This document shows, in pieces, positions 4,782 to 55,132 of a stretch of 59,296 nucleotides of DNA (within the stretch, counting starts at the first letter, position 1; each line of letters begins with the position of its first letter). The translations under genes and the position numbers were made by a program. The stretch lies in the NCBI GenBank assembly GCA_049975385.1, contig JBNGDO010000005.1, positions 1 through 59,296 on the forward strand, read 5' to 3'. This stretch comes from Anaerolineae bacterium (lineage in GTDB: Bacteria > Chloroflexota > Anaerolineae > B4-G1 > SLSP01). The notes under the pieces were generated by a model. That model was not told where the DNA came from, searched no databases, and saw only the letters and a program-made list of their open reading frames with translations.

Positions 4782-4844
4782 GAGTGAAGAGTGAAGAGTA
4801 AAGAGTTAAGAAGCAAGGAGCATCATTACTCATTACTCATTACC
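4782..4844 (+). repeat. intercistronic heptamer-array hairpin
   Basis: GAGTGAA GAGTGAA GAGTAAA GAGTTAA (4782-4809) are partly complementary to CATTACT CATTACT CATTACC (4824-4844). It is followed by GGGAGGAG and the ATG at 4865. Confidence 0.6.
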
Positions 4845-6987: not shown

Positions 6988-6990
6988 ATG

Positions 6991-7073
6991 GTAACGAGTA
7001 ACGTGTAACTGGTAATCAGTAACCAGTAACAGGCACTCATTCCCAATTACTAATTTCTAATTACTTATTACAA
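6991..7073 (+). repeat. intercistronic heptamer-array hairpin
   Basis: Six GTAAYNN heptamers at 6991-7032 (GTAACGA GTAACGT GTAACTG GTAATCA GTAACCA GTAACAG). Then four ATTWCNN heptamers at 7046-7073 (ATTACTA ATTTCTA ATTACTT ATTACAA). Then AGGAGG and the ATG at 7094. Confidence 0.6.
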
Positions 7074-7093
7074 ATTTCCAGGAGGCATAACTC

Positions 7094-24646: not shown

Positions 24647-25225
24647 CTATAAAGAGGCCGCAGGGCCAAACTCCAGGATATTTCCCGGCCTGGGGTTCCT
24701 CGTTCGCTCTGTATCATATTTCCCCCAGTGTACCGCTTCTTCCAGGTATTTTGTCCTGGGCTTCTTCTCTTCAGCGGGATAGCCGACGTAGAGCATCCCT
24801 ACAGCCTCGATGTCGTCCGGTATGTCGAGTTGTGCCTTAACTTTTTCCCGGTCAAAACCGCCAATGCACACGGTTCCCAACCCCAGTGCGGGCGCGGCGA
24901 TCATCATGTTTTCCATCGCGCAGGCACAATCTATGATTCCATAGCCTTTCCAGGGGATAAATTCGTTATTCCCGCAGATGACGACGATCACTGGCGGATT
25001 ATAGCCCGCATACGCCTCTATGCCTGCCTCTATTTCTCTGATGCTGTCTTTATCGTCAATGACAATGAAATCCCATGGTTGGATGTTGCAAGCCGACGGT
25101 GCGGCCATGGCGGCTTTCAATAGCGTCTCAAGTTTGTCTCTTTCAACGGATTTATCCTGAACAAACTGCCTTATGCTTCTTCTTGCGTAGATGGCATTGA
25201 GAATAAGTTCTTCAGAAGATTTCAC
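24647..25225 (-). CDS. nitroreductase-family flavoprotein
   Basis: RRSIRQF and APSACNIQPW motifs. The GTG at 25225 lies 8 nt after AAGGAG. Confidence 0.8.
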   Translation of the reverse strand: MKSSEELILNAIYARRSIRQFVQDKSVERDKLETLLKAAMAAPSACNIQPWDFIVIDDKDSIREIEAGIEAYAGYNPPVIVVICGNNEFIPWKGYGIIDCACAMENMMIAAPALGLGTVCIGGFDREKVKAQLDIPDDIEAVGMLYVGYPAEEKKPRTKYLEEAVHWGKYDTERTRNPRPGNILEFGPAASL

Positions 25226-25306
25226 TTGCCGGACTCCTTTTCTGTTCTTTGTGTGTGATAACGCATCCGCAAAATGAGCCGCGGGTTGCACTACCCTTGC
25301 GCGAAG

Positions 25307-25334: not shown

Positions 25335-25453
25335 GCCAGGTAGGGCTATCGCATTTAACCTCGTATTTTCTCGACCTATGGCATAACAGGATGTAACCCT
25401 TCCCCCTGCTCCCTTCCCGCACGCGGGAGGGGTGTGATTAATACGGTTTACAG

Positions 25454-25483
25454 TTTTTGGGCGCGTTACGCCGCGCCCAAAAA
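25454..25483. repeat. 30-nt palindrome (12-bp stem)
   Basis: TTTTTGGGCGCG, loop TTACGC, CGCGCCCAAAAA. The T-run precedes and the A-run follows on both strands, so this is not a canonical terminator. Confidence 0.6.
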
Positions 25484-25609
25484 CCACATAAAAGGTGTTG
25501 CCTGTCTGCGCAGAGAGCAGGGGGGGGTAAACTTGAAATACGATAACCTTGGCGAGCCGGTTGGCAGCAATGCGGCTATCGCGTCCTTGGAGATCTATTC
25601 TTATTCTAA

Positions 25610-25641
25610 CTATTGACAATTTGTTAATAGTGATGTAAAAT
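25610..25641 (+). promoter_or_regulatory. near-consensus promoter with overlapping 21-bp palindromic site (putative PadR::NifX operator)
   Basis: TTGACA (25613-25618), 17-nt spacer, TAAAAT (25636-25641). CTATTGACAATTTGTTAATAG (25610-25630) matches 17/21 positions of the site at 52448-52468. Confidence 0.6.
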
Positions 25642-25683: not shown

Positions 25684-25908
25684 ATGCCGAGATTTGATGG
25701 AACTGGTCCACGTGGTGCGGGCGCAATGACCGGACGTGGTGAAGGCTATTGCGCGGTTGCCTATCCAAAAGGCAGCCGGCCGTATGGCTACGCCGGGATT
25801 CAGGGAAGGCCCATAGGTGGCTTTGGATTCATGCGTCGATTCAGTCCCCTCCGCCGTTTTGGGCGTGGTGTCCGTGGCGGTAGACGGGGACGACGGGCGC
25901 GCTGGTAA
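25684..25908 (+). CDS. DUF5320-family Gly/Arg-rich small protein
   Basis: MPRFDGTGPRGAGAMTGRGEGYC N-terminus is typical of DUF5320. Arg/Gly-rich tail. Confidence 0.7.
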   Translation: MPRFDGTGPRGAGAMTGRGEGYCAVAYPKGSRPYGYAGIQGRPIGGFGFMRRFSPLRRFGRGVRGGRRGRRARW

Positions 25909-26038: not shown

Positions 26039-26347
26039 ATGATGCCAGGTGGAGATCGAACCGGACCGCAAGGCATGGGACCGCGCACGGGGCGCGGACT
26101 AGGCGATTGCGCTCCTACAGATCAACCGCGTCTGGGCTTCGGCTACGGCGGCTTCGGCTTTGGCCGTGGGCGTGGTTGGCGTAACTGGGCGCGTGCAACC
26201 GGGTTGCCCCGGTGGCTCCGTTTCGGAGGATGGGGAACAGCCCCATCACCGGCTGATGAGTCCGCGATGCTCAAGGCGCAAGCCGATCAATTACAGGCGC
26301 AGTTGGATGCCGTGCAACAACGGCTGGCAGAACTGAGCAACGAGTGA
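26039..26347 (+). CDS. DUF5320-family small protein with C-terminal coiled coil
   Basis: MMPGGDRTGPQGMGPRTGRGLGDC, a GFGYGGFGFGRGRG stretch, and the C-terminal heptad-like LKAQADQLQAQLDAVQQRLAEL. AGGAGG lies upstream. Confidence 0.75.
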   Translation: MMPGGDRTGPQGMGPRTGRGLGDCAPTDQPRLGFGYGGFGFGRGRGWRNWARATGLPRWLRFGGWGTAPSPADESAMLKAQADQLQAQLDAVQQRLAELSNE

Positions 26348-26351
26348 ACGT

Positions 26352-26444
26352 CTTCACCCAGTGAGGGCCTTCACTCCGTAAAGGCTTTCACTGGGTGAAG
26401 TTCTTTAATCCTGCCGCCGACCCTGATGTTACCAGGGTCGGCGG
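26352..26444 (+). terminator. tandem hairpins after the DUF5320 genes
   Basis: CTTCACCCAGTGA / TCACTGGGTGAAG (26352-26400) followed by TTCTTT. CCGCCGACCCTG / CAGGGTCGGCGG (26414-26444). Confidence 0.6.
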
Positions 26445-26646
26445 TATTGCTTGTCGGGGTGGCGAATACGACGGGTGTGTTCACTTTTTGGGCAAAGCGG
26501 GTGTCGCGCGCACTCCCTGGCTGGTAAATTAGCCTAACGCCCACGATTGGGCGGCGTGAAATACACCCAACCCTACATCGCATGCGGCAATTTGCTCATT
26601 CCAAGGTATAATTAACGGATATTCGATCTCAGAGGCTATACTATAC

Positions 26647-27804
26647 ATGAAAACACGGTTCTACTACAATTTACTCTTGGGTTTGTGTTTGTTGGGCAGT
26701 TTGCTGGCGTCGCCGGTCACTGCTGATACGCCAATTGTTCATGCAGTGATATTCTACTCGACGTCGTGCGGGCATTGCCATCAGGTGATCACGGAAGTGT
26801 TGCCGCCCCTGCTGGAAGAATACGGCGATCAACTCGTCATCGTCGGCGTTAATGTCGCTGACGCTGGGGGGCAAGCGTTGTACCAGGCCGCAATTACACA
26901 GTTCGCGATCCCTCAAGAACGTCTGGGGGTGCCCACCCTCATTATTGGGGATCATGTGCTGGTTGGTTCCCTTGAGATTCCCGAACAACTGCCTGGACTG
27001 ATCGAGGACTATCTGGCAGATGGGGGCAGGGATTGGCCGGCCATCCCTGGTCTGGTGGAGGGGCTGGAGGCGAGCGCCGCCACGCCTGAACCGGAGACAC
27101 CATCGCCACAACCTACGACTGTGGTCGAAGCAACGCCCGCAACCGAAGCGACAGCGGCCCCCATTGGACCAGCGGCTCCCACCGCGACGGCGGATCCGGT
27201 CATACCTGGTATCGACACCGATGACGACAACTGGTTTACCCTATACGCCCGTGATCCTTTGGGCAATAGCATCTCCGTTCTGGTGTTGATTGGGATGCTC
27301 ATTAGCGTTCTCTATCAGGCTATGGCACTGGCTCACGAACCCCGTGAAGCTGCATTACATCGCTGGCAATGGGCCATCCCACCGCTGGTCGTAGTGGGGT
27401 TAATCGTGGCAGGATATCTGGCTTACGTGGAGACGCAGCAAGTCACTGCCGTCTGCGGGCCGGTGGGCGATTGCAATGCCGTGCAACAGAGCGAGTTTGC
27501 GCTGCTTTTTGGCTTCTTGCACATCGCTGTCCTTGGGGTGATTGGGTACGTCGGCATCGGCGTAGCCTGGGCTGTGGCGCGCTTTGGATCTGGCCTGTGG
27601 GTGCACCTGGCGAAGCTGGCATTGGTCGGCATGGCCTGGTTCGGCGTGCTCTTCTCCATTTATCTGACCTTTTTGGAGCCATTCGTCATCGGTGCGACGT
27701 GCGCTTGGTGTCTCACCTCGGCGGTGCTGATGACGCTGTTGTTTTGGGTGATTGCTCCGCTCGCGCGCCCAGCCTTGGCTGCGGTGCGTGCATCACGTGA
27801 CTAA
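26647..27804 (+). CDS. thioredoxin-like domain fused to a VKOR (vitamin K epoxide reductase) membrane domain
   Basis: Signal peptide and CGHC Trx motif at the N-terminus. C-terminal polytopic part has the AVCGPVGDC loop Cys pair and CAWC. Confidence 0.75.
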   Translation: MKTRFYYNLLLGLCLLGSLLASPVTADTPIVHAVIFYSTSCGHCHQVITEVLPPLLEEYGDQLVIVGVNVADAGGQALYQAAITQFAIPQERLGVPTLIIGDHVLVGSLEIPEQLPGLIEDYLADGGRDWPAIPGLVEGLEASAATPEPETPSPQPTTVVEATPATEATAAPIGPAAPTATADPVIPGIDTDDDNWFTLYARDPLGNSISVLVLIGMLISVLYQAMALAHEPREAALHRWQWAIPPLVVVGLIVAGYLAYVETQQVTAVCGPVGDCNAVQQSEFALLFGFLHIAVLGVIGYVGIGVAWAVARFGSGLWVHLAKLALVGMAWFGVLFSIYLTFLEPFVIGATCAWCLTSAVLMTLLFWVIAPLARPALAAVRASRD

Positions 27805-27840: not shown

Positions 27841-28218
27841 ATGACACGCTTACCCGACATCGTCAGTCAAGCCTGGGAGCAACGTGAAGGCCCCGTCGTG
27901 CTGACCACTGTGGACCGTGAGGGCACACCAAACGCGATTTATGCCACCTGTGTGAGCAAATTCAGCGAAGATACCCTGGTGGTTGCCGACAACTTCTTCA
28001 ACAAGACCCGCGCGAATATTCTGGCAGGCAGTAAAGCTTCGCTCCTGTTTATCACCAAAGAGGGCAAAGCTTACCAGGTGAAAGGCCACCTGGAATATCA
28101 CACCGAAGGGCCGGTGTTTGACGCTATGAAGCAATGGAATCCGGCGAAACTGCCGGGTCACGCGGCTGCGGCTTTGAAAGTGGAGCACATCTTTTCTGGA
28201 GGCGAACAACTAGCCTGA
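27841..28218 (+). CDS. pyridoxamine 5'-phosphate oxidase-like FMN-binding split-barrel protein
   Basis: 125 aa with a PNPOx-like pattern (VVLTTVDREGTPNAIY...). Confidence 0.7.
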   Translation: MTRLPDIVSQAWEQREGPVVLTTVDREGTPNAIYATCVSKFSEDTLVVADNFFNKTRANILAGSKASLLFITKEGKAYQVKGHLEYHTEGPVFDAMKQWNPAKLPGHAAAALKVEHIFSGGEQLA

Positions 28219-43887: not shown

Positions 43888-44313
43888 TTACGCTTTGGGT
43901 GTTACGTCACACTCACCCTTGCCAAGGATGGTGATTTCCAGGTTCTCCATCGTTTTGATGGTAGCGTGTACCGGGCAATGTTCCGCGACGCGTTCGATAG
44001 CTCTCACCCGCTTCGCGCAATCCCCTTTCGGCAGGTTCACCGTGGCCTTGAGATCCACCAGCCGCGTTGGGTCGCTGGCCTTCTCGAAGGTCAGGTCCAC
44101 GGTCATCCCTGTGTCGTCAATGCCGTTGTTCTCACAGTACTGCGCGACAAACGCGCCAATGCAGCTTCCTAACGAGGCCACGAATAATTCCGGAGGAATC
44201 GGACCGCGGTTACTGCCGCCCATCGATGGCGGCACATCAATGGTGAGGGTATGCTTGCCAATTTGTGATTCAAATAACATATCGCCTTTGTAATGAGTGG
44301 TAATGGTTGCCAT
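43888..44313 (-). CDS. OsmC/Ohr-family peroxiredoxin-like protein
   Basis: PPELFVASLGSCIG and AEHCPV Cys motifs. The ATG at 44313 follows AAGGAG. Confidence 0.8.
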   Translation of the reverse strand: MATITTHYKGDMLFESQIGKHTLTIDVPPSMGGSNRGPIPPELFVASLGSCIGAFVAQYCENNGIDDTGMTVDLTFEKASDPTRLVDLKATVNLPKGDCAKRVRAIERVAEHCPVHATIKTMENLEITILGKGECDVTPKA

Positions 44314-44392: not shown

Positions 44393-45280
44393 TTACGTTG
44401 CAGCCGTGTCCATTGGCTTTTCATGAATAGAGCGCGAGCGACTCTGACGCACGATCACACTGCCTACCGGCGCACCCAAATCGCGCCCGATAACCGGACA
44501 TTTGACCTGCAAGAGGCAGAATACGCGCGGACCGGCCTCGCTCAAGGTCTCGTAGTTGGCCTGTCCCTTGGCGATGACCAACGGGGCAGCGGCGTAGATC
44601 TGGCGGAAGTCCTCGGAACACAGGCTCAGAATTGTACCGGGTGCATCGGAACCGTTGTCGATAAGGGTCGCGCACGTTTCTAGCCCCGCGGCCAGTGCGT
44701 CCCCACGCGTTGCGTCATTGAGCGTAGGGCCGCCTTTTACGACATAGGTCACCGGTAGTGTAAGTGTCTCGATCAACACACGATCGAAGACCGTCTCCCC
44801 GGCGTTGTCGGCCAGATAGAGCACGCGATCGGCGGCGTCCAGCGCCGACCGCAAGGCTGCCAGATCGTCGATGGCGAAGGGCGCAGCCAACACCCGCTCC
44901 ACCGCTGTCCAGAGATCGGCCAGTTCATCGGATAGGGCAAAGTCGATGATATTACCTGCGATGCTCAACCGTACGGCCGTTTCCAACGGATCGGTACTCT
45001 CGGCGACAAGGCCCTTGAGGCGAGGATAAAGCGCCAGGGCCGCGCGGGTGCTGTGCGCTTTAAGGTCGCGGTAAGGGTCACTATGCCCCATATGCTCACG
45101 CACGATGCGATGCACAGCATAGGCGATTTCCGGCGGCGTTTTGCCAGGCGGCAATGCCTGCAACAAAGCCAGGGTTTGTCCCATAATGGCATGCTGCTGA
45201 GCATCTTCCGCGCCTACTTGCCGTGCCGCTCTCAAGGCCTGGCTCAGGAAACAGGGATAACAATCGAGGTAAGTGCGCAT
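44393..45280 (-). CDS. DUF89 (ARMT1-like damage-control phosphatase) family protein
   Basis: MRTYLDCYPCFLSQAL N-terminus and a LADNAGETVFD motif. Confidence 0.7.
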   Translation of the reverse strand: MRTYLDCYPCFLSQALRAARQVGAEDAQQHAIMGQTLALLQALPPGKTPPEIAYAVHRIVREHMGHSDPYRDLKAHSTRAALALYPRLKGLVAESTDPLETAVRLSIAGNIIDFALSDELADLWTAVERVLAAPFAIDDLAALRSALDAADRVLYLADNAGETVFDRVLIETLTLPVTYVVKGGPTLNDATRGDALAAGLETCATLIDNGSDAPGTILSLCSEDFRQIYAAAPLVIAKGQANYETLSEAGPRVFCLLQVKCPVIGRDLGAPVGSVIVRQSRSRSIHEKPMDTAAT

Positions 45281-46346: not shown

Positions 46347-47228
46347 TTATACTTTTCCCAATCCCTGCTTCTGCAACATAGCCCATGCTGCCCGCAAGGC
46401 CTCCGCTGCAGGAGAGTTGCCCGCCGTAACCGGCTCGCCGCGCACCATTGCATCGGTGATCGTGGGATCGTAAAGCAAGCGTCCCACCAATGGGATGTCG
46501 TTTGCGGTGCAATAGGTGGTGACGGCCTCTGCCTGCACAGGGCTGAGATCGGCTTTGTTGAGTAACACCGCTGCTGGGATTTGAAAGTGTGTTGCCAGCC
46601 CCAGAGCGCGCTCCAGGTCGTGCACGCCGGAAACTGTCGGCTCGGTGACGATGAGCGCTAGATCCGCCCCGGAAAGCGCGGCGATGACAGGACAGCCGAT
46701 ACCCGGTGGCCCATCCACCAACAGCAGGTCGGCCTCGTCGTCGAAAGCGCGCAGCCGCGCCATCTGCTTGACCAGCGTGACGAGCTTGCCGGAATTCTCT
46801 TGCCCGGCGAAGAGATGCGCGTGGTAGAGCGGGCCGTAGCGTGTCGTAGCGACAAACCACTGCCCGGCGCGTTGCGGTTGCATCGCAATGGCATTAGCAG
46901 GGCACTCGTAGAAACACGCGGCGCAGCCTTCACAGGCGATAGGGTCTACGGCATAAGTGTCGCCTGGCACTACCGCATCGAAGCGACAGACCTCGGCACA
47001 GCGCCCGCAGGCGATACAGCGCGCGGCATCGACGACGGCGATCCTGCCGCCGGTAAAATCGTTCGTTTCTTGCGTGACGGGCGACAGCACCAGGCCCAGA
47101 TTGGCCGCATCCACGTCCGCGTCAGCGAGCACGATACGGTAATCCTGCGCTGCCAAATGCGTCAGCGCTGCCGTCACTGTCGTTTTACCCGTCCCACCCT
47201 TGCCACTTAGAATAACCAGTTGTTTCAT
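46347..47228 (-). CDS. MinD/Mrp-superfamily ATPase with inserted 2x[4Fe-4S] ferredoxin domain (COG1149 type), copy 2
   Basis: SGKGGTGKTT deviant Walker A. CIACGRCAEVC and CEGCAACFYECP motifs. Confidence 0.85.
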   Translation of the reverse strand: MKQLVILSGKGGTGKTTVTAALTHLAAQDYRIVLADADVDAANLGLVLSPVTQETNDFTGGRIAVVDAARCIACGRCAEVCRFDAVVPGDTYAVDPIACEGCAACFYECPANAIAMQPQRAGQWFVATTRYGPLYHAHLFAGQENSGKLVTLVKQMARLRAFDDEADLLLVDGPPGIGCPVIAALSGADLALIVTEPTVSGVHDLERALGLATHFQIPAAVLLNKADLSPVQAEAVTTYCTANDIPLVGRLLYDPTITDAMVRGEPVTAGNSPAAEALRAAWAMLQKQGLGKV

Positions 47229-47259: not shown

Positions 47260-47949
47260 CTAGTAAATGTAAGGTAGCAGGCGCCAGGAGCGCTGGCAAT
47301 ACGTTTCCCACGCTACCCCGAAGGTCTGATGAAGAAGCGCTTCTTCATCGTGAATACGAAAGAGAACTATACCGAGTACCGGGATGAAGGCCACCAGTCC
47401 CACCCACGAGCGAAACAGCAGCGCCAGGCCCGGCGTCGCCAGCAGCACGCCCAGGTAGCGCGGATGCCGCAGAACGCCATACAGCCCGGTGGTAATCAGG
47501 CGATGATCTTTTTGCAGCGTCACGTCGGGACTGTAAAAACGGCCAAGAGCAATGCCAGACCAGAGCACCAGACCGAGGCCCAGTCCGACACCCAGCAGCC
47601 CCACCCAGCGCAAGACTTCTCCGCCGGACCACACGGCCAGATCGCGCCGGTCGGCAAAGGGTAGGAAAAACAAGCCGCCGTACATCGCCAGAATGACCAC
47701 GACTTTGACAATGGTCTGCCGCGTCACGCGCTGCCCGCTCTCGTCTTTCCCGCCATGGATTTGCCCTGATGAGATGATCGCGTGATAGACGACGCCCAAT
47801 CCAAGCAGCAGGGTCAATCCCGCGTAACCCGCGCGCGGCGCGCTGGCGAAGAAGCCCAGCAAATCGCCCAGTCCCCACCCCAACAACACGGGAACCAAGT
47901 AAATGATCAATGTGCCGAATAGAAAGCGCAAAGCACGTAAGTATTTCAT
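47260..47949 (-). CDS. ICMT/PEMT-like membrane methyltransferase family protein
   Basis: GLYGVLRHPRYLG motif and 5-6 TM segments. Confidence 0.65.
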   Translation of the reverse strand: MKYLRALRFLFGTLIIYLVPVLLGWGLGDLLGFFASAPRAGYAGLTLLLGLGVVYHAIISSGQIHGGKDESGQRVTRQTIVKVVVILAMYGGLFFLPFADRRDLAVWSGGEVLRWVGLLGVGLGLGLVLWSGIALGRFYSPDVTLQKDHRLITTGLYGVLRHPRYLGVLLATPGLALLFRSWVGLVAFIPVLGIVLFRIHDEEALLHQTFGVAWETYCQRSWRLLPYIY

Positions 47950-48443
47950 TTTTCGTCAAATCTCCGGTCCGCTTGATGGGTATGGACGTTCGCCTGTACG
48001 CGCTCTAACCAGCCCACATGGTCGGCTGCGTCACCATCAAACGCCGGGACGTAGGGCTTGAGATCGAGAATGGGCGTGCCGTCCACCATATCCACGTTTT
48101 CCAGGTGCAATATGTTCCCCTCGCATTCCAGCAGCCGCACCACCGAGAGGCCGATGGGATTGGGGCGCGCCGGAGCGCGGGTGGCGAAGACGCCACGGGG
48201 TTCGGTATCCATAAACGGCGTGACTAACAGTCGCGGCGCAGGCGCATGGTGGAAGTGGTAGAGTACGATCACGTGAGAAAAGCCTTCCAGGTCTTGCAGA
48301 CCGGGCGCGAATTCTGGGTCAATCTCGGCTGTGCCGCGCACGCCGTCCGCACCCGCCGGCTGGATAGGCATCCCGGCGACGTCGTTGAACGGCGTGTGCA
48401 AGATGCCGATGGGTCGGTATTGGATGAGGCGCGCGTTGGGCAT
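47946..48443 (-). CDS. TsaA/TrmO-family (UPF0066) SAM-dependent methyltransferase-fold protein
   Basis: GFSHVIVLYHFHH, RPNPIGLSVV and DGTPILDLKPYVP motifs. Confidence 0.8.
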   Translation of the reverse strand: MPNARLIQYRPIGILHTPFNDVAGMPIQPAGADGVRGTAEIDPEFAPGLQDLEGFSHVIVLYHFHHAPAPRLLVTPFMDTEPRGVFATRAPARPNPIGLSVVRLLECEGNILHLENVDMVDGTPILDLKPYVPAFDGDAADHVGWLERVQANVHTHQADRRFDEK

Positions 48444-49431: not shown

Positions 49432-50316
49432 CTAATCCCCAGTCCCTAATCCCTTCACTTGCTCCCACAGCGCCACGAAACGCTCGCGATATTCGGGGCG
49501 AATGGCGATAAGCGATTCGCCGTTGGCGATACCCTCTGCGATGGCGCGTTCCAGCGGGATGCGCAGCAGTATGGGCAGGTTCTCGGTGGCGCAGTAAGCG
49601 TCCACACCATCGTCGCCCACCCCGTCGCGGTTGACGACGACGGCGACGGGTAAGCCAAGTTCGTCGCGGGCCACTTCCACCGCCACCTGCAGATCGTGCA
49701 GACCGAAGGGCGTCGGTTCGGTGACGAGTAGTACGGCGTCGGCCCCGCGCATAGTTTCGACGACGGGACACGATGCACCGGGTGGCGCGTCGAGGATGAT
49801 GGGCCGCTCATTCGCCTCTGGTGGAATCGCCCACCCTTTGAGCTGGCGTATCACCGGCACGGCCATCGCTTCGCCCACATCCAACGTTCCATTGAAGAAC
49901 TCTACCTCACTCGTGCCCGCCTTGGCGACACCTTTTTCCAATATCCCCATCAGATTTAGCGTTTCGTGGATCGCATTCTCTGGGCATTGGCGCGTGCAAC
50001 TCCCACAGCCGTGACACAGTTCGGGGAAGACGAGGACCTGTTTCCCGATGACGGTGATCGCGTGGTACTCACACACCTCGGCGCAGCGCCCGCAGGCGGT
50101 GCAGCGCGCTATATCCACCACGGGGATCAACAGCCCCACATCGCGCTGCGCAGTTATCTCAGGGTGCAGAAACAGCGCGGCGTTGGGTTCTTCGACGTCA
50201 CAATCCAGAAAAAGGGGGGAAGAAGCGGGATGTGCGGTGGCAAGGCTAAGCGCCAGGCTCACCGCTACCGTTGTTTTGCCGGTTCCGCCCTTGCCGCTGG
50301 CAATGGCAAGTTTCAT
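49432..50316 (-). CDS. MinD/Mrp-superfamily ATPase with inserted 2x[4Fe-4S] ferredoxin domain (COG1149 type), copy 1
   Basis: SGKGGTGKTT. CTACGRCAEVC and CHGCGSCTRQCP motifs. Confidence 0.85.
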   Translation of the reverse strand: MKLAIASGKGGTGKTTVAVSLALSLATAHPASSPLFLDCDVEEPNAALFLHPEITAQRDVGLLIPVVDIARCTACGRCAEVCEYHAITVIGKQVLVFPELCHGCGSCTRQCPENAIHETLNLMGILEKGVAKAGTSEVEFFNGTLDVGEAMAVPVIRQLKGWAIPPEANERPIILDAPPGASCPVVETMRGADAVLLVTEPTPFGLHDLQVAVEVARDELGLPVAVVVNRDGVGDDGVDAYCATENLPILLRIPLERAIAEGIANGESLIAIRPEYRERFVALWEQVKGLGTGD

Positions 50317-50322
50317 CGAAAG

Positions 50323-50520
50323 CTATTCCCGGATCATCTGCGTGCCACATTTTGGGCACTGTTTTGCGGTGCAGGGCTGTCCGGGAACGTGCGGCTCACG
50401 ATGCCCACACGCCGGGCAAACACACTGGCCCCCCGGCCCAGCGGCTGTCCCTCCCATCCGCCCTGGGCCTTGTCCCTGTCCTCGTCCGCCACCGCCTCCT
50501 CGTCTGGTTCCACGTCCCAT
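50323..50520 (-). CDS. 65-aa Gly/Arg-rich protein with CxxC...CxxC zinc-ribbon
   Basis: The ATG at 50520 follows AGGAGGT. Sequence MGRGTRRGGGGGRGQGQGPGRMGG...CVCPACGH...CPKCGTQM. Confidence 0.55.
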   Translation of the reverse strand: MGRGTRRGGGGGRGQGQGPGRMGGTAAGPGGQCVCPACGHREPHVPGQPCTAKQCPKCGTQMIRE

Positions 50521-50538
50521 TTCGCTACCTCCTGAAAA

Positions 50539-50568
50539 TAGTCTGATAGTCATTAGTCCGATAGTCCT
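50539..50568 (-). repeat. TAGTC tandem array (7/8-nt alternation) in the 5' leader of the zinc-ribbon gene
   Basis: Plus strand TAGTCTGA TAGTCAT TAGTCCGA TAGTCCT. It ends 5 nt from the SD complement. Confidence 0.6.
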
Positions 50569-50628
50569 GCGATCATTTTTATGATCAAGACTGCGCCTCA
50601 GGTTTGGTGACACTTCTTTGAAAGCGAC

Positions 50629-51081
50629 TCAAAGTCGCACTACGACCGCCCGCGCCAGCGATGCCGTGCTTGCCGCCCGGCTATCGCCGAGATGACGGAC
50701 CCCACAACTTTGCTCCCCCGTGGGCGCAGCATATAGATGTCCAAGCGTGTTTAGCACAAGCGGTGCCGCCTGGATGGCCAATTGTGCACCGGCCGCAATC
50801 ACCGTCGCCAGCGGATTCGTGTCCGGAGAGGATGATACAGGAGTGGCCACATCTGTGGGGGCGTATTCCGGGACTTGCGTCTCTGTGGGAACAGCTTCGA
50901 TCTCCAACACCGGCTGTAACGCTCCGGCCGGGCAGGCCTGGATACAGGCTTCGCACCCTTCGCATAGCGCATCGTCCAGATGGGCTGTGCCTTCCACCAG
51001 GGTCAGCGCGCGGGTTGGGCAAACTTCGATGCATGCGCCACATCCGGTACAACGGGTCACGTCAAGCCATACTGCCGTCAT
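50629..51081 (-). CDS. 2x[4Fe-4S] ferredoxin with about 90-aa low-complexity C-terminal extension
   Basis: CTGCGACIEVCP and CEGCEACIQACP motifs. The ATG at 51081 has an AGGAA 6 nt upstream (the ORF-track start at 51105 is TTG). Confidence 0.75.
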   Translation of the reverse strand: MTAVWLDVTRCTGCGACIEVCPTRALTLVEGTAHLDDALCEGCEACIQACPAGALQPVLEIEAVPTETQVPEYAPTDVATPVSSSPDTNPLATVIAAGAQLAIQAAPLVLNTLGHLYAAPTGEQSCGVRHLGDSRAASTASLARAVVVRL

Positions 51082-51121
51082 TGCAGTTTCCTTTCGTTGA
51101 CTCAATTACAAAATCTAAAAT

Positions 51122-51496
51122 CTATTCGTGGCCGTGTTCGACGCTCTCCTTGCAGGGGGCCGCGCCCTTCAGGTCACCGCCCAGATAGCGGGACAATGAT
51201 GCGCGCACGGTTCCCGCCGCGCCGGTCGCCGCTTCGATGCCATATTGCCGGAAGAGGGCGACGGCTCGGCCACCCATTCCGCCGGAGAGCATCACCTGTG
51301 CACCCAGACTGTGGATGAAGGCGGGGACCTGTCCGGGTTCGTGCCGGGAGTAGTATGGATTGGCGATCGTCTCTACAGTGCATACTTCTTGCCCCTCGGT
51401 TTCGACCAGGGTGAAGTACGGGCAGCGCCCGAAATGGGGGCTAACCTGGGCATCCAGGCCATTGGTATCCAACACAGAAATTGCAATTTTCGTCAT
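51122..51496 (-). CDS. NifX/NafY-like (dinitrogenase FeMo-cofactor-binding domain family) protein
   Basis: KIAISVLDTNGLDAQVSPHFGRCPYFTLVE is typical of the family. Cys/His tail APCKESVEHGHE. The ATG at 51496 lies 6 nt after AGGAG. Confidence 0.8.
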   Translation of the reverse strand: MTKIAISVLDTNGLDAQVSPHFGRCPYFTLVETEGQEVCTVETIANPYYSRHEPGQVPAFIHSLGAQVMLSGGMGGRAVALFRQYGIEAATGAAGTVRASLSRYLGGDLKGAAPCKESVEHGHE

Positions 51497-51506
51497 CAAA
51501 GTCTCC

Positions 51507-51566
51507 TAGTCATTAGTCAGATAGTCGTTAGTCATATAGTCCTTAGTCGGATAGTCCTTAATCGGA
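51507..51566 (-). repeat. four tandem 15-nt units (paired TAGTC heptamer/octamer) in the NifX-like gene leader
   Basis: Plus strand TAGTCATTAGTCAGA TAGTCGTTAGTCATA TAGTCCTTAGTCGGA TAGTCCTTAATCGGA. The last unit abuts the SD. Confidence 0.65.
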
Positions 51567-51610: not shown

Positions 51611-52420
51611 TCACCTACGTCCGCGGCGATGACGCCCGCCACCCATGCCCACGTGGCCAGCGCCAGGGGTTTCCAGGCGCGCCAACTGCCCGGCGTTGAA
51701 GGCCGCGATGGCCTCGCGCACGGTCGCGCCTTCCATGCGGTAGGCCGGGATGCCCGCCGCCTGGATGACGCGGAAGGCATTCGGTCCCAGGTTGGGGGCG
51801 ATCACGGCCCCCACGCCCTTCTGCAAGACAGTCTGGGCTGCCTGGACGCCCGCGCCACCGGGTGCGTCGATTGCCGGATTGGGCAGGGCCTCGAAGTCCA
51901 GCGTTTCGGGATCGACCAAAATGAACACTGGGCTGCGCCCAAAGATGGGGCTGGTCGGCGCATCCAAATCGGTGCCATTAGCAGGAATAACAAGTCGCAT
52001 CGTCATCTCCTCAGTTGTGAATGAATAGTCCGCCGCCGGAACGACACTGTCCGGCGCGAGTTCATCGTGCAGTGCTCGCAAGTATTCGAGCACCTGTTGC
52101 GTATCCTGGAGTTGTGCAATGCAACAGGCCAGCACTGCGTGTCCGGCAGGAGCCAGGGCATAGACGCGGCGCGGCGGACCTTGGGTCTCCTTTTCATCCC
52201 ACGTGGACGTGATCCACCCCCGCTCTTCCATCCCACGCAGCGCGCGATAGATCACGGTGGGGGCCAGGAAGTCCAGGCCGAACTCGGCCATACGGTTCAA
52301 AAGGGTGTAGCCATGGGCTGGAGATTGTTCCAGCAAGAGCAACAATGCCGGATCGAGAAACTGTCCCATCCGGCGGTTGCAGTCGCGTCCATTGCATTGC
52401 TGTCCCCCGCGATATCGCAC
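51611..52420 (-). CDS. PadR-family winged-helix regulator fused in frame to a NifX/NafY-like domain
   Basis: FLDPALLLLLEQSPAHGYTL...PRRVYALAPAG (PadR), then MRLVIPANGTDLDAPTSPIFGRSPVFILVD (NifX-like). No stop lies between them. The GTG at 52420 lies 6 nt after GGAGG. Confidence 0.75.
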   Translation of the reverse strand: MRYRGGQQCNGRDCNRRMGQFLDPALLLLLEQSPAHGYTLLNRMAEFGLDFLAPTVIYRALRGMEERGWITSTWDEKETQGPPRRVYALAPAGHAVLACCIAQLQDTQQVLEYLRALHDELAPDSVVPAADYSFTTEEMTMRLVIPANGTDLDAPTSPIFGRSPVFILVDPETLDFEALPNPAIDAPGGAGVQAAQTVLQKGVGAVIAPNLGPNAFRVIQAAGIPAYRMEGATVREAIAAFNAGQLARLETPGAGHVGMGGGRHRRGRR

Positions 52421-52437: not shown

Positions 52438-52468
52438 AGTATAGCATCTATTGCCAATCTGTCAATAG
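52438..52468 (-). promoter_or_regulatory. promoter of the PadR::NifX operon with overlapping 21-bp palindrome
   Basis: Minus strand CTATTGACAGATTGGCAATAG (52468-52448). The -35 TTGACA lies within it. A 16-nt spacer precedes the -10 TATACT (52443-52438). Confidence 0.55.
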
Positions 52469-55083: not shown

Positions 55084-55132
55084 TCGAGAATCAAGAATCG
55101 AAAGGATTCTTGATTCTCGATTCTCGATTCTT
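55084..55132 (+). repeat. pstS-pstC intercistronic heptamer-array hairpin
   Basis: TCGAGAA TCAAGAA TCGAAAG, then GATTCTT GATTCTC GATTCTC GATTCTT. Perfect 15-bp stem 55085-55099 / 55105-55119 with loop GAAAG. Confidence 0.7.

Follow-up and report, generated by a model that had tools for sequence, protein, structure and literature searches.

A palindrome shared by two promoters as the probable operator of a PadR::NifX fusion protein that would join DUF5320 genes to an ORP-like gene cluster in an Anaerolineae bacterium

Two promoters lying 27 kb apart in the genome of an Anaerolineae bacterium carry closely similar 21-bp palindromes on their −35 boxes, which raises the questions of what this element does and which protein reads it. 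The DNA analyzed here, hereafter the window, comprises positions 1 to 59,296 of contig JBNGDO010000005.1 (assembly GCA_049975385.1), a stretch of 59,296 nucleotides (nt). One of the two promoters precedes a pair of genes of the family DUF5320, for which we know of no function, and the other heads a putative 12-gene operon whose first product joins a PadR-type DNA-binding domain to a NifX-type domain (PadR::NifX). We consider it probable, from sequence comparisons, that the palindrome is a PadR-family operator, and that PadR::NifX would use it here to autoregulate its own gene and to control the DUF5320a-b unit 27 kb away. The sequences directly show the motif, its constant place in the promoter, its conservation, and its association with PadR genes and with the target genes; which protein binds, that it represses and does not activate, and what it senses are inferred.

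Operator A (CTATTGACAATTTGTTAATAG; 25610..25630, plus strand) spans the −35 box of the DUF5320-unit promoter and continues for 12 nt into its spacer. Operator B (CTATTGACAGATTGGCAATAG on the complementary strand; 52448..52468, minus strand) lies on the −35 box of the PadR::NifX promoter. Both promoters are of the sigma-70 type. The DUF5320-unit promoter (25613..25641, plus strand) consists of the −35 box TTGACA (25613-25618), a 17-nt spacer, and the −10 box TAAAAT (25636-25641). The operon promoter (52438..52465, minus strand) consists of TTGACA (52465-52460), a 16-nt spacer, and TATACT (52443-52438) preceded by TG, and the ribosome-binding site GGAGGTG of the PadR::NifX gene is found at 52431-52425 on the same strand. 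Each of them is the top sigma-70 match of its own region, with 11 of 12 bases agreeing with the consensus.

The two sites are imperfect inverted repeats with 9-bp arms (CTATTGACA / CTATTRMCA) around a 3-bp centre, and the left arm of each contains a perfect TTGACA. The mismatches between them are confined to positions 10, 11, 15, and 16. Sites A and B are the sole matches in the window to CTATTGACANNTTGNYAATAG at three or fewer mismatches, whereas shuffled sequences give an expectation of 0.03 in 59 kb. A symmetrized weight matrix was built from 17 aligned promoters of PadR::NifX orthologues, with site A left out of the training set. This matrix gives 34.7 bits for site A and 32.7 bits for site B, whereas the runner-up position in the window scores only 7.7 bits. 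Because the matrix trained without site A separates it so clearly from the runner-up, site A can be regarded as a full member of a conserved class of protein-binding sites. No third copy of the palindrome was found in the 59-kb window by either the pattern search or the matrix. An initial annotation of this DNA had described two 21-mers with 17 of 21 identical bases, both inverted repeats with TTGACA in the same register, followed by good −10 boxes at 16-17 nt and lacking a third copy in the window. All these points are reproduced when the window is re-read, and the resemblance is far above chance.

Conservation at related promoters helps to distinguish an operator from a mere promoter, and the palindrome recurs at the two corresponding promoters in dozens of Chloroflexi relatives. 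The loci of PadR::NifX relatives were picked by protein similarity, blind to the motif, and 16 of the 18 loci have upstream DNA. The palindrome precedes the gene in all 16, which come from related Chloroflexi genomes, at a distance of 27-79 bp as measured to the start of the protein match. The consensus across the relatives is CTATTGACA-N3-TGnCAnTAG (also written CTATTGACA-N3-TGTCAnTAG). In the 17 aligned promoters, the information content is approximately 0 across the 30 bp upstream, rises to 1.35-1.87 bits at positions 1-9, and is high again at positions 13-14, 16-17, and 19-21. The columns of the −10 box and the ribosome-binding site are also conserved and in register. A TAnnnT −10 box is located on the gene side, 16-17 nt past TTGACA, at every target promoter except that of a NUDIX gene (L120), which has no in-register −10 box and is a doubtful target. 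The left arm is the better conserved of the two, reaching approximately 1.87 bits, whereas positions 15 and 18 of the right arm stand at 0.3-0.4 bits; such a difference is to be expected if one arm serves as both a half-site and the −35 box.

The position of the second conserved block should be noted. Sigma-70 imposes no sequence requirement on the promoter spacer. The block lies in the spacer, where it is not read by sigma-70, and it is an inverted repeat of the first block; the element is therefore likely to be a protein-binding site, not a promoter alone. The shared operator postulated in the initial annotation thus gains support from 16 of 16 orthologous promoters with unconserved flanks. 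A reading that dispenses with any dedicated regulator takes the element as a strong promoter signature only, namely, an extended preference of the RNA polymerase of this lineage for certain −35 and spacer sequences. The perfect TTGACA in the left arm and the constant register to the −10 box are compatible with this reading, but the right arm repeats the left one in inverted form within the spacer and the outer CTA/TAG bases are invariant. In addition, the element is limited to a small, functionally coherent gene set, it tracks PadR genes, and no other promoter of the 59-kb window carries it. We thus regard a promoter signature without a regulator as highly improbable.

The distribution of the palindrome bears on the protein that binds it. 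A motif-only scan covered 185,579 species genomes, and a second pattern scan added further loci; the resulting target lists are samples of the regulon. Among the first-scan matches listed, 25 loci belong to Chloroflexi, approximately 21 of which have a PadR gene directly downstream of the site. Many more Chloroflexi sites beside PadR genes are found among the matches listed for the second scan. The window holds only one PadR gene, that of PadR::NifX. The protein had been suggested as the regulator in the initial annotation, and both the tracking of PadR genes by the site in Chloroflexi and its being the sole PadR in the window make it the likely candidate.

PadR::NifX (269 amino acids [aa], GTG start; 51611..52420, minus strand) was examined with Pfam, alignments, an AlphaFold2 model, and matches in the Protein Data Bank (PDB). 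From the N terminus, it is composed of a C9-x4-C14-x-RR motif, a PadR winged helix (residues 18-121) containing the pair C99-C100, a disordered linker (125-139), an ORP-like NifX domain (141-250; ORP, orange protein), and a Gly/Arg tail. Its N-terminal half belongs to the PadR family (PF03551; residues 26-98 score 55.4 bits, the cutoff being 27), and its C-terminal half contains a Nitro_FeMo-Co domain (PF02579; 65.6 bits against a cutoff of 26.3). The model has a mean predicted local distance difference test score (pLDDT) of 80.7, reaching approximately 90 in the PadR part, where a winged helix is followed by a long C-terminal helix. The secondary structure elements (helices 12-32, 37-47, 54-66, and 91-121; strands 70-75 and 84-89) are those of the subfamily-2 architecture, a winged helix-turn-helix with a dimerization helix. 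The model is a monomer with a flexible linker (predicted template-modelling score, 0.45), and it is silent on the proximity of the N-terminal Cys residues to C99/C100 and on the packing of the NifX domain on a dimer. Foldseek matches the N-terminal half to single-domain PadR proteins (5dym, 6abt, 2esh, and LmrR) at template-modelling (TM) scores of 0.65-0.88. The NifX domain is matched to apo-ORP (2wfb) with a TM score of 0.90, a root-mean-square deviation of 1.3 Å, and 36% identity. By sequence, the PDB matches of the NifX half include 1eo1 (E value, 1e-23) and 2wfb (6e-17).

In an alignment of 61 homologues, H36-G37-Y38, Y58, and R84-R85 are invariant or nearly so. PadR-family proteins contact DNA through two Tyr residues and a basic residue, which are Tyr20, Tyr42, and Lys67 in Bacillus subtilis PadR (PMC5728393). 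Y38, Y58, and R84/R85 fit this signature, their equivalence being judged from the motif context. The cysteines are also well conserved. Of the 81 homologues with an N terminus inside the gene call, 79 carry the C-x4-C part of the C-x4-C-x-RR motif ahead of the first helix, and the CC pair in the dimerization helix is at least 90% conserved in the 61-homologue alignment. The corresponding codons are at 52394-52379 (C9 and C14) and 52126-52121 (C99 and C100) on the minus strand. The N-terminal C-x4-C is missing from the stand-alone PadR paralogues examined, one of which (P0120) has WW instead of CC. The four conserved cysteines may form a metal or Fe-S site. The GGAGVQAAQ loop of the NifX domain is invariant.

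Approximately 107 homologue clusters have both PadR and NifX domains, and the public annotations of these are automatic names only. At four loci (L014, L016, L017, and L029), PadR and NifX are encoded as two adjacent open reading frames (approximately 134-136 aa, followed by a separate NifX), reflecting either gene fission or assembly frameshifts. In the metagenome-assembled genome (MAG) R24_97, three separate regulator matches each follow a palindrome, namely, those at L014 and L016 and a partial match where L034 ends; an OsmC/VKOR site (L093) is present as well.

The other side of the proposed regulon is the DUF5320 unit. DUF5320a (74 aa, beginning with MPRFDGTGPRG; 25684..25908, plus strand) and DUF5320b (102 aa, with a C-terminal coiled-coil-like helix; 26039..26347, plus strand) are both members of PF17253 (31.7 and 92.3 bits, respectively, against a cutoff of 27). 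An identical protein (P0121) and homologues of DUF5320a are also found. Homologues of DUF5320a were collected by protein similarity, and the contigs encoding eight of them were checked, again blind to the motif. In six of the seven distinct contexts so selected, the palindrome heads the DUF5320 transcription unit. It is located directly upstream of DUF5320a in L143 (35.4 bits), L144 (30.3 bits), L145/146 (37.2 bits), and L147/148 (33.3 bits), and upstream of a stand-alone PadR gene heading the DUF5320 unit in L151/152 (31.7 bits), L153 (19.4 bits), and L154 (25.1 bits). DUF5320 pairs behind the palindrome are present also in two of the PadR::NifX loci selected by protein (L010 and L015), and the motif scans add at least L033, L103, L155, L186, and L223. 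The layout of the window, with an operon site and a DUF5320 site, recurs on separate contigs in the MAGs DYKY01 (L003 and L155) and JAPKMR01 (L050 and L186).

DUF5320 is linked to NifX-type proteins by two further kinds of evidence. Among the matches listed, DUF5320 genes are found inside DUF89-NifX-ferredoxin-MinD clusters in Planctomycetes and at another Anaerolineae locus. In fusion proteins, the same NifX-type domain (52-61% identical) is joined to DUF5320, and some PadR::NifX proteins end in the C-terminal coiled coil of DUF5320. The fusion set comprises P0108, P0110-P0116, P0106, P0107, and the product of L154:3838-4419; in P0110, the NifX-type domain is inserted between the N-terminal MPxGDGTGP motif and the C-terminal coiled coil of DUF5320. 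Pfam confirms the initial gene calls, two DUF5320 genes and a PadR gene carrying Nitro_FeMo-Co. The idea that the DUF5320 genes would belong to the regulon of the operon agrees with the palindromes at the protein-selected contexts and at the further loci. The neighbourhood of DUF5320 with NifX and ferredoxin-MinD genes, which the initial annotation suggested, is seen in the synteny and strengthened by the fusions.

The arrangement of the sites suggests how control could be exerted. A dimer would place one winged helix on each 9-bp arm, with the arm centres 12 bp apart. With the −35 box inside the left arm and the spacer occupied by the right arm, the bound protein would block sigma region 4, and two otherwise near-consensus promoters would be repressed by −35 occlusion. 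Repression by occlusion is proposed because, at both of these promoters, the site overlies the −35 box together with the spacer. The signal would probably be read by the fused ORP-like NifX domain, by C9/C14/C99/C100, or by both, and the likeliest signals, by analogy with ORP and its regulator OrpR, would be a metal-sulfur or Fe-S cluster or the redox state. PadR::NifX could instead bind the palindrome and act as an activator or a dual regulator. The direction of control in the present model is deduced from the site position, and the ORP genes of Desulfovibrio are under positive control by OrpR (PMC8359166). Both promoters, however, match the consensus at 11 of 12 bases and can do without an activator, the overlap of the site with the −35 box and the spacer is typical of repressors, and the characterized PadR proteins are repressors (PMC5728393). 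Activation or dual control by PadR::NifX is thus rather improbable, and repression is preferred.

The operon proposed to be autoregulated comprises 12 co-directional genes, the regulator and 11 others, from 52420 to 43888 on the minus strand, separated by short gaps or overlapping. The regulator gene is followed by those for a NifX-like protein (Nitro_FeMo-Co; 51122-51499), a 2×[4Fe-4S] ferredoxin (50629-51105), a small Gly/Arg-rich and Cys-rich protein (50323-50523), a MinD-like ATPase with CbiA/ParA and Fer4 domains (49432-50316), an MBL-fold protein (48452 to approximately 49429), TrmO_N (47946-48443), ICMT/PEMT (47260-47949), a second MinD-like ATPase with CbiA/ParA and Fer4 domains (46347-47228), CobW (45280 to approximately 46344), DUF89/ARMT1 (44393-45280), and, as the last gene, OsmC (43888-44313), all on the minus strand. 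These were identified from open reading frames and Pfam matches. A terminator-like hairpin past OsmC (43855-43841, minus strand) marks the probable end of the operon. The 12-gene operon of the initial annotation is plausible in view of the co-directional genes, their tight spacing, and this hairpin, and its gene order is shared with L001-L017.

The operon and its neighbourhood have further sequence features. Tandem heptamer and octamer repeats fill the short spacers between co-directional genes. Approximately 10 copies of GACTAnn(n) are located between PadR::NifX and the next gene (51507-51560, minus strand) and four before the small Cys-rich gene (50525-50570, minus strand). Other spacers, at 4782-4811, 4823-4843, 6989-7076, and 55105-55131, contain the heptamers GAGTGAA, TCATTAC, AATTACT, and GATTCTC, and orthologous spacers contain GACTA, GATTTTR, or AACTCTY arrays. 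Filling spacers in this way seems to be common throughout the genomes of this lineage. Gly/Arg-rich N-terminal tails (MGRGTRRGGGGGRG..., MHGRHGHRGGGGRG..., and MPGRGRGRGWRR...) recur in the small Cys-rich protein of the operon (50323-50523, minus strand), stand-alone PadR paralogues, and DUF5320 (examples include L010:4827-5111 and P0120), and a similar tail is found at the C terminus of PadR::NifX. This recurrence hints at a shared interaction or nucleic-acid-binding tail.

Compared with known PadR proteins, the DNA-binding part of PadR::NifX resembles the subfamily-2 members LmrR of Lactococcus lactis, LftR of Listeria (6abt), CdPadR_0991 (5dym), and TM0937 (2esh) in having a winged helix and a long C-terminal dimerization helix. 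As with PadR repressors, a putative palindromic operator overlaps the promoter of the regulator's own gene, and Tyr, Tyr, and basic residues are conserved where DNA contacts would be expected. As far as can be read from sequence, the operator follows the same logic as in any ordinary PadR-type repressor that controls its own gene. PadR::NifX differs from the known PadR proteins in its fusion, via the disordered linker, to an ORP-type NifX domain, in the N-terminal C-x4-C-x-RR arm and the CC pair in the dimerization helix, and in the half-site CTATTGACA, which doubles as the −35 box. The PadR-family members known to us respond to small organic molecules; the effector here is presumably neither a phenolic acid nor a drug.

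The genes under the palindrome resemble the ORP system of Desulfovibrio vulgaris. The ORP complex contains ORP and two MinD-like ATPases with two [4Fe-4S] motifs each (PMC6345978), and the window likewise encodes a Nitro_FeMo-Co protein and two CbiA/ParA proteins with Fer4, together with small Fe-S proteins. A dedicated regulator serving two separate transcription units of the system is a further likeness, here as a proposal. A gene for the two-domain Mrp/NBP35-NifX protein (Orp9) was not found in the window operon, and an Mrp-type gene occurs in the related L154 unit. The Chloroflexi set also differs from the Desulfovibrio one by the addition of DUF5320, DUF89, CobW, MBL, TrmO_N, ICMT, and OsmC. 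The mode of control is different as well. In Desulfovibrio, control of the orp operons depends on sigma-54 together with IHF and OrpR, an enhancer-binding activator that senses redox via a [4Fe-4S] cluster in a PAS domain (PMC8359166), whereas the window has sigma-70-type promoters, no OrpR, and a PadR fusion that would act on the −35 box. In vitro, an Fe-S cluster is bound by a NifX-type domain of Orp9; the cluster of ORP itself is of the Mo-Cu-S type, and the system has been given a putative role in cell division and Fe-S maturation (PMC6345978).

Two other groups of proteins provide partial parallels. The C-terminal half of PadR::NifX matches NifX/NafY/NifB-C-terminal proteins, such as MTH1175 (1eo1) and TM1290 (1rdu), by sequence (E values of 1e-23 to 3e-21) and by fold. 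Unlike in these proteins, the domain shares a polypeptide with a DNA-binding domain, some relatives have it joined to DUF5320, and no nitrogenase genes are present alongside it in the window. IscR, NsrR, and RsrR, of the Rrf2 family, are cluster-sensing winged-helix repressors. PadR::NifX would be analogous to these as a small dimeric winged helix-turn-helix repressor with conserved cysteines that is autoregulated, acts on Fe-S and redox genes, and recognizes a promoter palindrome, while it differs in being a PadR and in its cysteine spacing (C-x4-C ... CC), which is not that of the Rrf2 motif. These comparisons allow a more specific and more tentative proposal, which we hold to be possible rather than likely: PadR::NifX could be a cluster- or redox-sensing repressor of a kind not described before, in which the four conserved cysteines and/or the NifX domain hold an Fe-S or Mo/W-S cluster and DNA binding depends on the state of that cluster, and thus a sigma-70/PadR counterpart of OrpR, with DUF5320 as the partner of the NifX domain in an ORP-like machine. 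A physical partnership of DUF5320 with the NifX domain is suggested because NifX::DUF5320 fusions exist.

Several observations weigh against the proposed assignments. PadR::NifX of the window has Ile instead of the His residue of the HFG motif usual in NifX domains (SPIFGRS), and Ser instead of the Cys residue found after FGR in the consensus and in most orthologues, so that cofactor binding by its NifX domain is not assured. The palindrome is missing from one DUF5320a homologue context (L149/150) and from the Anaerolineae locus L138, where DUF5320 lies within a DUF89-NifX operon. The same 21-mer occurs in Actinobacteria beside TetR-family genes, and the motif is therefore informative about the regulator only within this lineage. 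Finally, relatives encode stand-alone PadR paralogues behind the same palindrome, and the window is 59 kb of the genome; a second protein could therefore occupy the window sites.

The last point corresponds to a reading in which the operator is real but is bound here mainly by another protein, the likeliest being a stand-alone PadR paralogue encoded outside the window, while PadR::NifX binds weakly, as a heterodimer, or not at all. Stand-alone PadR genes (approximately 120-145 aa, without the Cys motifs) head DUF5320 units behind the palindrome in L010, L103, L151-L154, and many second-scan loci, and only 59 kb of this genome is in view. On the other hand, no stand-alone PadR gene is found at the DUF5320 locus of the window or of L143-L148, L155, and L186, the window has no second PadR, and the promoter of every fused PadR::NifX gene carries the site, as is usual where a regulator controls its own gene. 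Occupation mainly by a paralogue is thus judged unlikely, and PadR::NifX is retained as the probable binder.

The regulon may extend beyond the two units. Downstream of the DUF5320 pair, genes for a VKOR/thioredoxin-like protein (26647-27804, plus strand) and a PNPOx-like protein (27841-28218, plus strand) were identified with Pfam. The gap between DUF5320b and VKOR holds no palindrome, either in the window or in L146, where the order of DUF5320a-b, gap, and VKOR recurs, whereas the VKOR-PNPOx orthologues in L088 and L093 have a palindrome of their own. The two genes are thus candidate members in the window on the strength of the relatives. In the gap of approximately 300 bp between DUF5320b and VKOR, a hairpin with a 14-bp GC-rich stem (26412..26446, plus strand) is conserved in L143 (1670-1702); its T-tail is weak, and termination, attenuation, and RNA stability are all conceivable roles. 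Another GC-rich hairpin (25453-25487), spotted by eye, is bordered by T-runs at one end and by A-runs at the opposite end (tttttgggcgcg...cgcgcccaaaaa). It is located between a nitroreductase gene (24647-25291, minus strand) and site A and looks like a bidirectional terminator insulating the DUF5320 promoter. An Rfam search of the window gave no matches.

In relatives, in-register sites with a −10 box precede genes for OsmC (L055 and L093), a 1-Cys peroxiredoxin (L004), and a NifX-like protein (L164). Across the relatives, the regulon would thus combine the ORP-like Fe-S set (NifX-like proteins, two MinD/ferredoxin ATPases, a ferredoxin, and the small Cys-rich protein), DUF5320, and thiol/peroxide genes (OsmC, VKOR-PNPOx, and the 1-Cys peroxiredoxin). 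In the closest relative, MAG JBJYXQ01 (L178:15-46), the 21-mer is identical to site A and GTAAAATGGAGACA is conserved after it, while the five bases between them differ (TGGCG against TGATG, one in each). This promoter/operator module precedes a gene for a 657-aa ABC exporter (ABC_membrane and ABC_tran), not DUF5320, which points either to a further regulon member or to a promoter module that was relocated.

Matches of the 21-mer are numerous outside Chloroflexi, and such sites were rejected as regulon members. Those in Neobacillus and Robertmurraya are upstream of a lipoprotein gene. The actinobacterial sites are beside TetR-family and fatty-acid genes; CTATTGACA-N3-TGnCAATAG is found between TetR-family genes and fatty-acid/oxidoreductase genes at L019, L023, L026, L049, L058, L072, and L090 and, among the matches listed, at approximately 25 Amycolatopsis loci. 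The actinobacterial palindrome thus looks like a TetR operator that is not related to the present one and has converged on its sequence.

In our literature searches, we came across no PadR protein that combines a fused ORP-like NifX domain with a four-cysteine signature, no description of the 21-bp operator or of a regulon joining DUF5320 to an ORP-like cluster, and nothing relevant on DUF5320 or on DUF134/NifX/MinD. If the proposal is true, it would provide the first functional assignment for DUF5320, whose functional link comes from three independent sources, namely, co-regulation, synteny, and domain fusion, and the PadR family would gain a sensor domain of the metallocluster type. The operator gives a testable regulon for uncultured Thermoflexales and Anaerolineae, as well as a defined DNA probe and a defined protein for biochemistry. 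The role of the orange protein system of anaerobes is still unsettled, and the conserved operator ties an ORP-like cluster to DUF5320 and to thiol/peroxide genes.

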